Shown in pieces: positions 1,549 through 7,138 of a stretch of 11,118 nt of DNA. The notes below the pieces were generated by a model that saw only the letters and a program-made list of their open reading frames with translations, did no database searches and was not told the origin of the DNA. A program made the position numbers and the translations under genes. Where the stretch lies: IMG/VR virus record IMGVR_UViG_2675903255_000015, one strand, 5' to 3'. How positions within the stretch are numbered: the stretch's first letter is position 1; the number at the start of each line of letters is the position of its first letter. This stretch comes from a virus (taxonomy: Duplodnaviria > Heunggongvirae > Uroviricota > Caudoviricetes).

Positions 1549-1704
1549 TTACTCCTCAGGTTCGTAAGCTGTGAAGACAGCGACCTCCGTCTGGCCGGTT
1601 CGGATTCGTACCTCGCAGAGGTCTTTCCTCGTTACCAGTGCCGTCACTATGACGATTAAACAGATGACGATCAGGGCGATTAACATCGCCTTTTGCTGCT
1701 TCAT
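1549..1704 (-). CDS. hokD: Hok-family type I toxin (HokD/RelF-like small membrane peptide, 51 aa)
   Basis: ATG at 1704 with AAGGAG 7 nt upstream. Product MKQQKAMLIALIVICLIVIVTALVTRKDLCEVRIRTGQTEVAVFTAYEPEE matches the Hok/Gef family as recalled, closest to HokD. The track ORF 1549..1761 is an in-frame upstream extension from ATG 1761 (GAGG SD), possibly a mok-like leader reading frame. Confidence 0.85.
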   Translation of the reverse strand: MKQQKAMLIALIVICLIVIVTALVTRKDLCEVRIRTGQTEVAVFTAYEPEE

Positions 1705-1744
1705 AGCCTGCTTCTCCTTGACCTTTCGGTCCGTAAGAGGCAAT

Positions 1745-1803
1745 CTATATGTGACGAGCATATAGGGGCCTCACTTCGATTTATAGTCGGGTGGGGCTTT
1801 TAT
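1745..1803 (+). ncRNA. candidate Sok-like antisense RNA to the hok leader (speculative)
   Basis: Plus-strand hairpin GCCTCAC(1768-1774)/GTGGGGC(1791-1797) followed by TTTTAT (1798-1803) is a plus-strand-specific intrinsic terminator antisense to the hok leader and mok-like start. A TTGACC -35-like hexamer sits at 1718-1723, but no convincing -10 was found, so the 5' end is not defined. Confidence 0.3.
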
Positions 1804-1896
1804 CTATCTGCCGTTGGTGTTCATGCCCGAGGCAGATAGCCTCAAGCACCCGCAGCAATCCTACTTAACTCTGCCGTTACAGCAAACCGTTTTCGC

Positions 1897-2039: not shown

Positions 2040-2798
2040 TCAAGTGCCTTTCCTAGTCCAGCCATATTTTTTGAATGCAGGCGCCGCTTCATCGGTTTGT
2101 AGCCATTCTGCAAATCGACGGGTTTCATCATTTGCATCCTGACGTACTGTAATGTTCATATCACGCCATATCACGTAGTCTGGCGCTATTTCCACGACAT
2201 CACCAATTTCTGGATTACTGGCTGCCCAGTCAGCCCAGGTTATCCAGACATCTGCTCCAGGCTGATTCTCAAGAGCCTTACGTGCAGTTCCGCTATTGGG
2301 CGCATATAAAATAATATTTTTTCGGATTGCGGCGACAGTTTCTATATTCCCTTTACGTCCGGCAATATCTTCCCAGACGCCAGTGCCTGATGTATTACTG
2401 GTACCACCACCATCATTAACAATTACGCCAATCCCAGGTCTGGTCAGGTCGTCAATACTCCGGATATTTTTAGGATTACCTTTCTTTACCAGTAAAATAC
2501 TTTTTCGCAGATAAAGAGGCTGAATATCTTTTTCACTGAAGCTGTCTTTATGGTCCCGAATGATAGCCAGAGCAGATTGTTCTGATGCGCCAAACAAGAT
2601 ATCTGCATTTTTTTTGGCATCTTCATTCCATTTGTTCTGTGGGCCGTAATGAACGTTCACTATAATACCTGTTTTTTCGGCATAAAGTTTGGCTGCATCA
2701 AGCAAGGCTGTATGCGGGCCACCAGGACCATACAGATTGATATCAGCATAAGCAGCAGAAGACAGGAATATTAAAAAACCTGCCATTATGTTCCTCAT
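2040..2798 (-). CDS. secreted periplasmic solute-binding protein, ModA/AcfC-like (252 aa)
   Basis: ATG at 2798 with AAGGAG 6 nt upstream. N-terminal Sec signal peptide MRNIMAGFLIFLSSAAYA. Overall layout and the C-terminal ...FKKYGW resemble the molybdate/tungstate/sulfate-binding PBP family (recalled ModA ends ...FKRYGF). Markedly AT-rich relative to neighbours, flanked by an AT-rich upstream region, consistent with a moron. Confidence 0.8.
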   Translation of the reverse strand: MRNIMAGFLIFLSSAAYADINLYGPGGPHTALLDAAKLYAEKTGIIVNVHYGPQNKWNEDAKKNADILFGASEQSALAIIRDHKDSFSEKDIQPLYLRKSILLVKKGNPKNIRSIDDLTRPGIGVIVNDGGGTSNTSGTGVWEDIAGRKGNIETVAAIRKNIILYAPNSGTARKALENQPGADVWITWADWAASNPEIGDVVEIAPDYVIWRDMNITVRQDANDETRRFAEWLQTDEAAPAFKKYGWTRKGT

Positions 2799-2962
2799 AA
2801 AAAACTCCTTTTATTGGTTATCATGAAATAAAGTTATAAACACTACAAATAATATATATTACATCCAGATAAACTTATCCGACTTTACCTCGTGCATAGC
2901 TTGTTATTTAAAGTCAACAAAATAAGGAAAATTATACGCATATTGAAGAGTATAAACCTTAC

Positions 2963-2990
2963 ATGTTGATTACATTTTTGTAATCAACAT
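2963..2990. promoter_or_regulatory. 28-bp inverted repeat ATGTTGATTACA-tttt-TGTAATCAACAT upstream of the ModA-like gene
   Basis: Perfect 12-bp arms with a 4-bp spacer, about 165 bp upstream of the ModA-like start in an AT-rich region. No T-tract follows on either strand, so an operator is more likely than a terminator. Confidence 0.4.
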
Positions 2991-3049
2991 CCTGTTTGGA
3001 ATAGCCAGCCTTTAATGGATAACTATTTCTGACAATGCAATGAGTATAA

Positions 3050-3622
3050 TCAAGTCCATCTTCCACTGAGAATTAGAGGCGGCATGCTTTTTCCGGCTCT
3101 TGCCGGATATCCGTAATTGTCCATAATCTGCAGATTTATACCTTCTGCATGACCTGTCAGCGAAAATTTGTCCGGTGTTTCTACGGGAATGACATCAAAA
3201 GTTACACGCACTCGCGTTACCGTGTAGACCTACTTTCCTGCACTTGCAAGATCACAGTGGTGTAACCGTAACAGGAATTTATTCTCTGGACCGGCAGTAA
3301 ATCCCTGAGTGGCGTGGTTCCCATATCAATTTCCCGCCAGGCAGCCTCCATTGCCAGCGTACAGGCTGGAGCCATGACCTGCCCTTTAAATCTGGCCCGA
3401 CCATCCCACCGGACGTGTTCTTCTCCCCTGAACTTAGGTACAGTCATCTCCAGTGGCACAAAAGTGTCAGCGCCATAATTTTTGACCGTTATCGCGCTAC
3501 GGATATTTTGTTGACTGGTGAAAATCACCCCGCAGAATCAGGCTTATTCCCTTAACCTGGGCTTTCATCCTGACCGCCGCCTCACTACGACCAATCAGAC
3601 TGCCGATGCATTTTACCTTCAT
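3050..3622 (-). pseudogene. disrupted gene: three abutting ORF fragments in three different frames on the minus strand
   Basis: Fragments 3622..3497 (MKVKCIGSLIGRSEAAVRMKAQVKGISLILRGDFHQ...), 3537..3217 (...ITVKNYGADTFVPLEMTVPKFRGEEHVRWDGRARFKGQVMAPACTLAMEAAWREI...) and 3229..3050 (VTRVRVTFDVIPVETPDKFSLTGHAEGINLQIMDNYGYPARAGKSMPPLILSGRWT) each read as protein, overlap by 13-40 nt at their junctions, and none has a convincing RBS. Consistent with one ancestral gene of about 190 aa carrying two frameshifts. Family not recognised. Confidence 0.4.
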
Positions 3623-3657
3623 TGTTAGTATCATGATTTCAGGCCTGCACCATCCGC

Positions 3658-4239
3658 TCATTGCCCGGACTTCCGACAAATCCCGGCAACCATATCCCGG
3701 TGCTTGTTCAGCTCCCGCAGCGCGGCGCAGACTCGCTCCCACTTCTGGACATGATTCTTCGCCCTACGCAGTTCGCGATTTGCCATATGCAGCGATGGCA
3801 AAATCAAATCATCTTCTCGCGTTGCAGTAAACGATGGCAGCGACTGCACAATGTCCGCCACAGTTTCTGTTTTAATATCTTCCTGTGTTGCATCTTTCTG
3901 TACCGGTAACGCAACACCGGCTGGCTGAGGAAAGGCTTTACCATCGGTTTCCGCTACCGATTCAACTTTCGGCTCTGCTGGTAAATTATCACCTGGTATG
4001 CAGTAACGAATTTTACCGTTCTGGTTTACGCGAATCAGACGACCTTTGCTGATTGCCATTGCCAGCGTTGAAGCAACTTTGCGGGATGTTGTACCGAACA
4101 GCGTAGCCAGTTCATCCGCCGTTTGTGGTCCGCGTTGTTCAATCGTCGCGGTTAAATCGCACTCTGAGATTTTCGCTTCTGTTGCCGTGGTGGTTTCTTC
4201 TGGCGCTGGCTGTTCCTGCTGAACGTTGTTATCAGCCAC
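3658..4239 (-). CDS. winged-helix (MarR-like fold) DNA-binding protein, 193 aa as annotated from GTG 4239; the frame extends to ATG 4392 across an in-frame TAG
   Basis: Track ORF starts at GTG 4239 with no SD. The same frame upstream has ATG at 4392 with GGGAGG SD, giving [58 protein letters not shown]..., which reads as one protein. The TAG at 4339-4341 is therefore probably a nonsense mutation. The region [32 protein letters not shown] resembles a wHTH. Confidence 0.6.
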
Positions 4240-4425
4240 ACGCCAGGTGTATACGCTTTTATCAACGAAGCCAGCCTTTTTCAGTTCCCACAGCTCGTTC
4301 AGTACTTCTTCACGACTGATATCAAGTCGCGCAGCCAGCTATACCGACGTGGCTTTTCCCATCGCTTTCAGTGCGTCAAAAACAGTCTCCATAAATTTCC
4401 TCCCGGTAAAAAATCACTTCTCAAC

Positions 4426-5091
4426 TCAAACAAAACCAGCCGCTTTCCGGCGTTCATATTCCTGTTTCAGCAACTCAATTGGCGTTGGCCCCGACGGGCG
4501 TTTGGGGGCCGCCAGTTGTCGCCGGACTGGCGGAACGCTCAGGCCGTTACTAACATGCTTTGCCCATTTCGTCAGTTGCCGTTCTGCAAGCCGTTTTAAT
4601 TCCCCTTCGGTCATCTGGCGCTCAATCCCCTTTGAACGCATCTCGAGGCAAATGTGATACAGCACAGGCTGAGACCACGGGTACTTATCACTTCCGTCGT
4701 ATCGCCAGGACTCATTGCGCCAGCGGCGGTACTCCTCCATCACAGCATCCACCGTCAGACCGAATGGATTGGCTCCGCTTTTCGAAATCAGTGCCACAAA
4801 CTCAGCCAGGTCCGGAGGCCATGTTTCACCCGCCCGGCAGCGGTCCATGCACTGGCGGCAGACCTGCCGGATTTGCTGCTCAGTCATCGCGCCAATCTGT
4901 GCAATCCAGAGCTTCGAAGGTGCGGCCCCGTTCTTCTGGATCCAGCGGTTCGAATAAACCACCCCCATGAGTTCCCACAGCTTCCAGGCCGTTTCCGTCG
5001 CTGATAAATCCGTTTTCACGTTCCCACTGCTCACGTGCTGCCCGAATTTCCTGAACTGCCCGTGATGCGGTGCCACCTGGTGCTGCTGCAT
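4426..5091 (-). CDS. replication protein P-like (helicase loader, lambda P family)
   Basis: ATG at 5091 with AAGGGG upstream. C-terminal half ...YPWSQPVLYHICLEMRSKGIERQMTEGELKRLAERQLTKWAKHVSNGLSVPPVRRQLAAP follows recalled lambda P (...YPWKSNAHYWLVTNLYQNMRANALTDAELRRKAADELVHMTARINRGEAIPEPVKQLPV). An in-frame ATG at 4887 overlaps the O stop codon and is an alternative coupled start. Confidence 0.85.
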   Translation of the reverse strand: MQQHQVAPHHGQFRKFGQHVSSGNVKTDLSATETAWKLWELMGVVYSNRWIQKNGAAPSKLWIAQIGAMTEQQIRQVCRQCMDRCRAGETWPPDLAEFVALISKSGANPFGLTVDAVMEEYRRWRNESWRYDGSDKYPWSQPVLYHICLEMRSKGIERQMTEGELKRLAERQLTKWAKHVSNGLSVPPVRRQLAAPKRPSGPTPIELLKQEYERRKAAGFV

Positions 5092-5920
5092 GGTTTACCC
5101 CTTTGCTGACTGGTTTAACCTGCGCCCTGACGTGATTTACGTGACGGGCGAATTTCTGCTCCCACTGAATCTGCGTAAACACTTTCCCCTCCGCTGCCCA
5201 GTAGTCCCGGAAGGCGGCAAGTTCAGCAGGTGTAAATTCTGTCTCCGGCAAAGCCATCCCCCACAACGCAGCCCGTCGTCGAAAATCCCGTGACGGATAC
5301 CAGCTATCGCTCATCGGGAATTTTCCGATGGGTTCGCTCAGGCCATACAGGAATACAGGGGGGGCTGCCTGTAACGACAAAACTTCCTGCTCACTGGTCG
5401 GAGCACTCTCGCGTGCGTTATGTGTGGGGTTTAGATCTTTGGGTTCCTTTGGGTTCCGTGATCCGTTTTTGGGTGTCTTTGATGGAAAATTTGGGTGTCT
5501 TTGGTTATTTTCCATGCAGCTAAGAGTTCTGTTTTTGGGTCTGTTTTGTGCTGAAACATAACCATTTTCGGTACTGTTTTTATTAACAGCACCAATTTTA
5601 CCCACCTTTAAAGACTCCCGTTTTTGGGTGTATTCAGGCTCGGCAACACTTTCTTCTACACCGATAAGTCGGTACACCACAATTTGCTTTGTTCTGCCTT
5701 TTCTCTCACCGGTATCAACAATTAACCCAATCTCCATCAGGTGTCGTAAGCTGTCCTGCACAGTCTTTTTGTTCAGTTCCGTTACTTCTGCCAGTGCAGA
5801 TACAGACGGGTATGCACACAAATCGGCACCGCACATATCAGCAAGCCAGGTCAATACTGACTTACTGGATGAACTGCCGGTTTTCACCTTTTTAGCCCAT
5901 CGTAGTGCATCGATACTCAT
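4880..5920 (-). CDS. replication initiation protein O-like (lambda O family)
   Basis: Preferred start ATG at 5920 (AGGGGGG SD 4 nt upstream; [12 protein letters not shown]...); the track's 5995 start is TTG. C-terminal domain [58 protein letters not shown] matches recalled lambda O (...[53 protein letters not shown]). N-terminus is wHTH-like. The 3' 212 nt overlap the P ORF out of frame. Confidence 0.85.
   Translation of the reverse strand: [346 protein letters not shown]
5438..5635. repeat. ori-like iteron array plus AT-rich segment inside the O gene
   Basis: Six copies of TTTGGGT(G/T)(T/C)C-type repeats at 5438, 5448, 5468, 5490, 5534 and 5623 (two identical TTTGGGTGTCTTTG at 5468 and 5490), with an AT-richer stretch at about 5551-5620. 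In phage lambda the replication origin with its O-binding iterons lies inside O; here the array encodes the K/N/P-rich linker of O. Confidence 0.6.
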
Positions 5921-6443
5921 ACGCCCCCCTGGCAGACATTTGTTTATCTGCAAAGTAATATTGGTATTGCTGACGATACGCGTGCTTGAAAGCAATAGCT
6001 TTTTCTATAAGCTCGTCAGTCTCACGTTCCACAACAACTGGATCCGCAAAAAGCAGCCCGGACTCCACCACATCGCCATATTCTTTGTTTAACCCGGCGA
6101 TCATGTACGTAATGCTTTTTCCGTCAGTAATTTCACAATACAATCTGAAATCGCTGATCCGGATAGCCTCCATAATTGCCGGAATCAGCGCCGTGAATTT
6201 GTCACGCTTATCTCTGGTGTCGATAGCTTTCCAGCGTTCGAATATCTTCACCCGGTTAACGCCCAGCGCCCGTTGATCAACCTCGCCATCATTAAACGTG
6301 ACGCGTTGAACATCGATGTTCGGGCGTTCTTTCAGAGCCCAGAATGCTTCCGTGATTAATATCGTCGCCTGCTCCTGTGTCATTCCTGGTCGGCATACCC
6401 AGGTATCCAGAGCCTCACAAACCTGTTCAGTGGTGATTTTCAT
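5892..6443 (-). CDS. YdaT-like protein at the cII position (183 aa)
   Basis: ATG at 6443. Sits immediately downstream of the cro-like dicC and upstream of O. The segment KFTALIPAIMEAIRISDFRL resembles recalled Rac YdaT (...KLIPAILAILPRELRHRL). Overlaps dicC by 17 nt and the preferred O start by 29 nt. Confidence 0.6.
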   Translation of the reverse strand: MKITTEQVCEALDTWVCRPGMTQEQATILITEAFWALKERPNIDVQRVTFNDGEVDQRALGVNRVKIFERWKAIDTRDKRDKFTALIPAIMEAIRISDFRLYCEITDGKSITYMIAGLNKEYGDVVESGLLFADPVVVERETDELIEKAIAFKHAYRQQYQYYFADKQMSARGAYEYRCTTMG

Positions 6444-6654
6444 TGTTCAACCGCCCCGCCCGCTTTGCCTTACGATATTCGTCATAAACTTTGGGGTCGT
6501 ACTGAAGTTCCCCGCCGGATGCCTCTTGCAGGCGCATCGAGCGACCTTCAGGAACCAGTTCCCCCCATGCAGCAACGCTTGCCAGCCTAACTCCTGCGAC
6601 ATTGGCAAGCTTTGTTTTGCTGCCAAAAAACGCTATAGCATCAATTTTCAACAT
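6427..6654 (-). CDS. dicC: Cro-like regulator DicC (75 aa)
   Basis: ATG at 6654, divergent from dicA. Product MLKIDAIAFFGSKTKLANVAGVRLASVAAWGELVPEGRSMRLQEASGGELQYDPKVYDEYRKAKRAGRLNNENHH matches recalled K-12 DicC over most of its length. Confidence 0.8.
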   Translation of the reverse strand: MLKIDAIAFFGSKTKLANVAGVRLASVAAWGELVPEGRSMRLQEASGGELQYDPKVYDEYRKAKRAGRLNNENHH

Positions 6655-6730: not shown

Positions 6731-7138
6731 ATGAAAAACGAAACCTTCGGTGCTCGCCTCTTATACAGGCGAAAAAAATTAAAACTGTCTCAGGCCGCAT
6801 TAGGTAAGCTGGTCAAAGTGGCTCACGTAACAATTTCTCAATGGGAAAGAGATGAAACACAGCCAGCGGGGAAGAGATTATTCGCACTGAGCCAGGCGCT
6901 TCAGTGCTCGCCGACTTGGCTTCTTTTTGGAGATGAAGATAAGCAACCAGGCGAACCGATCCCAGATAATCAGCCAGTCAATCTGACAGAAGATCAAAAA
7001 GAGTTGCTTCAACTGTTCGACGCACTGCCTGAGTCAGAGCAAAAGGCTCTGTTGTCAGAGATGCGTGCTCGAGTTGAGAATTTCAACAAACTTTTTGAAG
7101 AACTACTCAAAGCTCGCAAAAGAAGCGCAAATAAATAA
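6731..7138 (+). CDS. dicA: prophage repressor DicA (HTH XRE family, 135 aa)
   Basis: Product MKNETFGARLLYRRKKLKLSQAALGKLVKVAHVTISQWERDETQPAGKRLFALSQALQCSPTWLLFGDEDKQPGEP...MRARVENFNKLFEELLKARKRSANK matches recalled K-12 DicA in length and sequence, with the HTH at residues about 20-40. Confidence 0.85.
   Translation: MKNETFGARLLYRRKKLKLSQAALGKLVKVAHVTISQWERDETQPAGKRLFALSQALQCSPTWLLFGDEDKQPGEPIPDNQPVNLTEDQKELLQLFDALPESEQKALLSEMRARVENFNKLFEELLKARKRSANK

Follow-up and report, generated by a model that had tools for sequence, protein, structure and literature searches.

A premature stop codon in a DUF1627/YdaW-family gene of an Escherichia coli O157:H7 prophage

For the DUF1627/YdaW-family gene in the 11,118-nt stretch of viral DNA analysed here (the window), a mechanical list of open reading frames gives only a 193-aa, GTG-initiated part, 3658..4239. 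An earlier note, written from the sequence alone, had pointed out that an ATG with its own Shine-Dalgarno sequence opens the same frame further upstream and is soon followed by an in-frame TAG, which it read as a recent nonsense mutation. The question raised by this locus is whether the TAG has silenced the gene, whether a shorter protein is made from a start downstream of it, or whether the stop is read through or is an error of sequencing.

The interrupted frame and its prophage setting

On the minus strand, ATG 4392-4390 is followed by 17 codons, by TAG 4341-4339, and then in the same frame by 226 sense codons ending at TGA 3660-3658. The anatomy described in the earlier note (GGGAGG, ATG 4392, TAG 4339-4341 and continuation into the 193-aa ORF) was exact. 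The parts of the frame are as follows.

4399..4404, minus strand: Shine-Dalgarno sequence GGGAGG, with a 6-nt spacer to the ATG; kept in intact orthologues
4342..4392, minus strand: true start ATG 4392-4390 and the 17 still translatable codons, METVFDALKAMGKATSV, equal to residues 1-17 of the intact 244-aa orthologues
4339..4341, minus strand: premature stop TAG at codon 18, derived from GAG (Glu18) by G-to-T at window position 4341 (minus-strand base)
3658..4338, minus strand: remaining 226 sense codons and TGA, now without a credible start; RefSeq/PGAP CDS from CTG 4338, WP_077744273.1
3658..4239, minus strand: 193-aa ORF from GTG 4239 in the same frame, without the whole first helix-turn-helix (HTH) module; a deposited gene model

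The read-through product matched phrog_630 over residues 1-242 (E 1e-122) and aligned end to end with homologues of 244-257 aa, which argues that the continuity of the frame across the TAG is not due to chance.

The whole 11.1-kb window gave a 100% match to many E. coli O157:H7 chromosomes. Judged from its sequence, the window comes from an E. coli O157:H7 lambdoid prophage that carries paa, and in its early region it is almost the same as the 'PPompW' prophages described previously (bioRxiv 10.1101/2020.11.04.367953). The early-right operon has the order cI-like, Cro, YdaT-like, DnaT-domain O-like, P and DUF1627, with a small ORF beyond it.

6731-7138, plus strand: cI-like repressor (Pfam, RefSeq annotation)
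6427-6654, minus strand: Cro (Pfam, RefSeq annotation)
5892-6443, minus strand: YdaT-like protein (Pfam, RefSeq annotation)
4880-5920, minus strand: DnaT-domain O-like protein (Pfam, RefSeq annotation)
4426-4887, minus strand: replication gene P, lambda P family (Pfam PF06992, E 1.3e-16; PGAP)
3497..3661, minus strand: 54-aa ORF (PGAP WP_001505071.1)

The match of the upstream gene to the lambda P family confirmed the earlier placement of the interrupted gene after P. The DUF1627 gene always lies directly after the replication module, with a P-type loader in the window and in the related loci L002 and L008, or with a DnaC-type loader in L003, L007 and L009. At its other end, the TGA overlaps the ATG of the 54-aa ORF (ATGA, 3661-3658), for which no Pfam match was found. 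Given this overlap alone, the 54-aa ORF may be translationally coupled to the DUF1627 gene, and such coupling, if any, would be lost through the TAG.

Several further features were observed around the operon. Beyond the early genes lies a moron block with a fimbrial-protein pseudogene (about 2959-3492, minus strand; annotated by PGAP as frameshifted and with an internal stop) and with paa, an intact AcfC-family adhesin gene (2040-2798, minus strand) whose product has an SBP_bac_11 fold and a signal peptide. A type I toxin-antitoxin locus at 1549-1851 (minus strand) comprises a hokD ORF and a full-length Rfam sok (RF01794, 103.9 bits, 1702-1851). In the same prophage of the atypical O157:H7 strain PV15-279 (L001 3021-4233), an IS1203 insertion that is not in the window splits the O-like replication gene and so adds another, independent lesion to the early operon. 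Directly behind the DUF1627 gene, the slot is occupied by a 2-kb gene for a 'P-loop ATPase, Sll1717 family' in a Rac-like relative (E. coli STS63-1-E, L003 4037-6106) and by DUF977, LygF or Ead/Ea22-like genes in other relatives; this downstream position is therefore a variable cargo site.

Family membership and predicted architecture

The 226-aa translation that follows the TAG matched Pfam PF07789 (DUF1627) with 308.9 bits (E 7.6e-93) over profile positions 1-153 of 155, against a curated gathering threshold of 28.1 bits, and the intact orthologue obtained the same DUF1627 score. AlphaFold2 was run on the intact orthologue. The modules reached a pLDDT of about 80, and the whole-model pTM was only 0.27 because two disordered linkers separate the modules. 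The predicted modules map onto the window as follows.

4246..4392, minus strand: module 1, codons 1-49, three-helix HTH/winged-helix-like (AlphaFold2 helices 4-11, 16-23 and 27-40; pLDDT about 80)
3988..4176, minus strand: module 2, codons 73-135, winged-helix-like, with three helices and a beta hairpin (H77-87, H92-99, H103-115, E120-124, E127-131; pLDDT about 82)
3664..3825, minus strand: module 3, codons 190-243, a single long C-terminal helix (AlphaFold2, H190-243) with a conserved motif beginning RELRRAK

The prediction departs from the earlier suggestion that the first 50 residues form one helical segment, since a three-helix HTH-type module is predicted there, and the TAG falls in the second helix of this module. 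The Pfam DUF1627 region begins in module 2 and covers residues 84-236. The module 3 helix may serve in oligomerisation.

The description of the locus as a winged-helix gene is a reasonable label but unproven. The predicted modules are three-helix HTH or winged-helix-like folds that may resemble those of MarR/ArsR-type regulators and the tandem winged helices of ScpB-like proteins, and a Foldseek search of the AlphaFold2 model against the PDB returned generic winged-helix matches of this kind (MarR/ArsR-type, 3cuo, ScpB). The best E value was 1.5e-3; no PDB match fell below E 1e-3, and no specific functional assignment was obtained. Scores to curated HTH families stayed below threshold, with 26.6 bits to Pfam HTH_20 for module 1 (cutoff 27) and only sub-threshold HTH matches in NCBIfam (ArsR/SmtB, 23.5 versus 55). 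DNA binding is putative.

The homologues are overwhelmingly full length. A large-database search returned 2724 of them, and 113 of the best 120 were 240-257 aa long and covered 96-100% of the 244-aa query; the short forms in the homologue cluster were labelled 'partial' or were the same O157 allele. Phage records with a match carried the full-length form in 24 of 24 cases, with at least 80% of the full length covered. The earlier note had named homologues that start at the equivalent of the GTG and lack the upstream codons as the finding that would speak against an interrupted gene, and the lengths observed point the other way. Residues 1-45 are almost invariant even in the homologues of Stx phage 75/02 and of an Actinobacillus phage, whose identity is only 50% and 70% overall. 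The 'PPompW' prophages of O145:H28 encode a protein with 99.2% identity to the one considered here. Full-length YdaW/phrog_630 members are continuous ORFs of about 244-257 aa that start METVFDALKAMGKATS(V/I)EL. The window DNA is colinear with these intact genes and 99.9% identical, but its codon 18 is TAG, which marks the window copy as a probable disrupted member of YdaW/phrog_630, that is, a pseudogene.

YdaW of the K-12 Rac prophage belongs to the same family. Its gene likewise lies after replication genes (there the DnaC-like ydaV) and, again in a resident prophage, has decayed. Where the two copies overlap, the DNA is about 89% identical, and the K-12 protein shows 93% identity to P0001, the intact representative of the cluster. 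K-12 ydaW keeps the N-terminal two modules and has lost its C-terminus by a deletion that joins it to a lysis gene, whereas the O157:H7 copy is full length in DNA and stopped at codon 18. In an overexpression screen, K-12 ydaW emerged as a hit that blocks the retron-Sen2 toxin RcaT (bioRxiv 10.1101/2020.06.22.160242), which is the only functional hint for the family. In addition, ydaW has been listed as a predicted transcription factor (PMC9308461). In the literature searched, 'DUF1627' appears only as a neighbourhood marker of the PasA/PasC sRNAs, and no mechanistic study of DUF1627 or ydaW was found.

The map position of the gene, first after P in the early-right operon, is that of lambda Ren, a protein of 96 aa compared with 244 aa for the DUF1627 gene. 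PHROG families named 'Ren-like exclusion protein' gave weak matches to residues 79-128 (E about 4e-3). Membership of the Ren family was rejected, with an hhalign probability of 0.4% and an E of 0.16 over 29 columns, and the likeness to Ren appears to be a positional analogy only.

Origin of the stop codon

The earlier note had proposed alignment to homologous prophage genes as a check. Relatives carry GAG or GAA at the orthologous codon, and position 18 was Glu in every homologue examined (117 of 117). The alignment thus upheld the reading of the TAG as a nonsense mutation, although the example offered at the time, CAG to TAG, has to be replaced by GAG to TAG on the evidence of the alignments and of a rebuilt allele.

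This GAG allele was rebuilt with G in place of the T (851 nt) and searched against 5,426 complete E. coli genomes. It was found at 100% identity over 851 nt in at least 55 records, and the carriers among the matches listed included six O55:H7 strains (CB9615, RM12579, DEC5A/D/E and USDA5905, each 100% over 851 nt), O157:H7 LSU61, and strains of O145:H28, O121:H19 and O103. The TAG is therefore the sole difference between the window and the O55:H7/LSU61 allele over this length. The annotations of CB9615 and LSU61 show an intact gene for the 244-aa protein WP_000450692.1 (PF07789/phrog_630), and the context is the same as in the window, with P, DUF1627, the 54-aa ORF, the fimbrial pseudogene and paa; the native start of the window, in contrast, can give rise to a 17-residue peptide only. 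A comparison of 3851 nt showed two differences between the window and LSU61 and three between the window and CB9615, the T at 4341 being one of them in both cases. Such close identity substantiates the earlier view that the mutation is recent.

Two other strains were compared individually. The 244-aa CDS of strain 2013C-4081 is intact and departs from the window at two bases, one of which is the T, and the copy of CFSAN027346 differs at the T and by a private 1-nt deletion that shifts the frame. Furthermore, the exact 61-mer around the TAG occurred in 293 complete genome records, and all of those listed with a stated serotype were O157:H7; the exact GAG 61-mer occurred in 311 records.

By these comparisons, the ancestral codon is GAG (Glu18), and a single G-to-T transversion made it TAG. 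LSU-61 has been described as an intermediate between the O55:H7 and O157 branches (PMC3309690). Because LSU61 has GAG and holds this published position, the TAG arose within the O157:H7 lineage, later than both the O55:H7 ancestor and the LSU61-like intermediate. The locus thus has a premature in-frame stop relative to intact orthologues, and the intact state, found in O55:H7, LSU61 and other serotypes, is the ancestral one, as expected of a gene inactivated by nonsense mutation.

The same comparisons shed light on two other sites of the prophage. The fimbrial gene is in the same pseudogene state in O55:H7 and LSU61, so its decay predates the TAG. Shortly before its ATG 5920, the ribosome-binding region of the O-like gene contains a run of G (window positions 5924-5925, minus strand) that grows stepwise from GGGGTT in O55:H7 CB9615 through GGGGGT in O157:H7 LSU61 to GGGGGG in the window; these bases also lie in the overlapping YdaT-like frame, where they change Ser to Ala in the C-terminus of the protein. 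This run and the TAG are the only differences among the window, LSU61 and CB9615 over the 3851 nt.

Consequences for expression and alternative readings

The predicted pairing with the anti-Shine-Dalgarno sequence was strongest at ATG 4392 among all in-frame candidate starts (-10.3 kcal/mol), compared with -3.0 kcal/mol at CTG 4338, -0.9 kcal/mol at GTG 4239 and -0.1 kcal/mol at the first downstream ATG, 4059. Before codon 95, every downstream NTG start had a pairing no better than about -3 kcal/mol. The doubt that the earlier note had cast on the GTG as a start is thereby justified. When 3000-5200 was scanned for promoters and terminators, the strand of the gene showed no internal promoter from which the downstream part could be transcribed separately, and nothing rose notably above shuffle expectation; the Rfam scan of the window returned sok only, with nothing at or near the TAG. 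With no usable ribosome-binding site at any in-frame start beyond the TAG, the DUF1627/YdaW-family gene in the window is most likely dead. Apart from the TAG, the frame is undecayed, which is expected for so young a mutation and may also be compatible with residual use.

We consider it highly probable that the locus is a young pseudogene, a DUF1627/YdaW-family gene stopped by one recent nonsense mutation in the O157:H7 lineage. The intact gene encodes a 244-aa protein in which disordered linkers join three predicted modules, namely an N-terminal HTH, a second winged helix and the long helix at the C-terminus. In the typical O157:H7 lineage, the G-to-T transversion turned codon 18 from GAG (Glu) into TAG, and ribosomes that enter at the strong native site would release a 17-residue peptide. 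The remaining 226 codons, left without a start and a ribosome-binding site, would give at most traces of protein by rare read-through or reinitiation, and any reinitiation product would be devoid of the most conserved part of the protein. We infer from this that the protein and its function have been lost and that the loss was neutral. Independent disruptions of the DUF1627 gene elsewhere, namely the CFSAN027346 frameshift and the C-terminal deletion of K-12 Rac ydaW, fit with dispensability in resident prophages.

A different outcome would be a functional, N-terminally truncated protein that restarts at the CTG by the TAG (226 aa) or at GTG 4239 (193 aa) and keeps the second winged helix and the C-terminal helix. 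PGAP annotates the 226-aa CDS with no pseudogene flag, the 226-aa and 193-aa models have each been deposited on about 1000 contigs, and phrog_11856 (160 positions) matches only the C-terminal part, which means that short gene models exist in phage annotations. Such a product would also retain the Pfam DUF1627 region (residues 84-236) in full, and the downstream frame is intact. However, CTG is a very poor initiator, neither it nor GTG 4239 is preceded by a Shine-Dalgarno sequence (-3.0 and -0.9 kcal/mol), and the missing residues, 1-18 or 1-51, sit in the most conserved module of a family whose best homologues are full length in 113 of 120 cases, the short forms being 'partial' or the same O157 allele. 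We regard a functional truncated protein as very unlikely. GTG 4239 as the true start was rejected on the evidence of the full-length homologues and of the intact GAG allele in the population. Low-level read-through of UAG exists in E. coli, and the TAG might be decoded by a near-cognate tRNA, or by a suppressor tRNA encoded elsewhere in the genome, giving low and possibly regulated amounts of the full-length protein. The undamaged remainder of the frame would agree with such decoding, but the stop results from one derived SNP restricted to a single clone, at a codon that specifies Glu in all relatives. In addition, no tRNA gene, and hence no local suppressor, was found in the tRNA scan of the window, and no conserved downstream structure or context pointing to programmed read-through was found. 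Background read-through is expected to give well under a few percent of the normal product, and expression by read-through appears extremely unlikely. Programmed recoding, for which a stop conserved in homologues would be expected, was rejected, as the TAG occurs in the O157:H7 allele only.

That the T is a sequencing or assembly error in an intact gene is virtually impossible, since the same TAG 61-mer stands in 293 independently sequenced complete genome records and the window as a whole is identical to many O157:H7 genomes. A further idea concerns the consequences of the mutation rather than its nature. Since the K-12 relative was scored as a retron-toxin blocker, the family may act as an anti-defence or regulatory factor among co-resident prophages, and loss of the YdaW-like protein might have been selected during the emergence of typical O157:H7. 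Alternatively, a trace reinitiation product, which may be without the first HTH and retain the C-terminal helix, might be dominant-negative on paralogous DUF1627 proteins; O157:H7 genomes hold 4-8 matching places for the DUF1627 gene. We hold this idea, in either form, to be highly unlikely.

The young pseudogene bears on how the locus is annotated. PGAP starts its 226-aa CDS on the CTG right after the TAG, whereas the CFSAN027346 copy with the 1-nt deletion is flagged as frameshifted instead. We regard the 226-aa (CTG) and 193-aa (GTG) gene models as annotation artefacts of the premature stop, and a pseudogene flag that refers to the 244-aa WP_000450692.1 would suit the locus better.

The case is ordinary, a nonsense pseudogene of very recent origin that belongs to a known prophage gene family, and its wider importance is small. 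The G-to-T SNP at window position 4341 separates the sampled typical O157:H7 from O55:H7 and LSU61 and is a candidate lineage marker within the stepwise evolution model. Moreover, the DUF1627/YdaW family is widespread in lambdoid prophages, has an extremely conserved N-terminal module and adjoins the replication module; the copy knocked out naturally in O157:H7 and its isogenic-like, intact counterpart in O55:H7 and LSU61 provide a ready-made pair for tests of its function.
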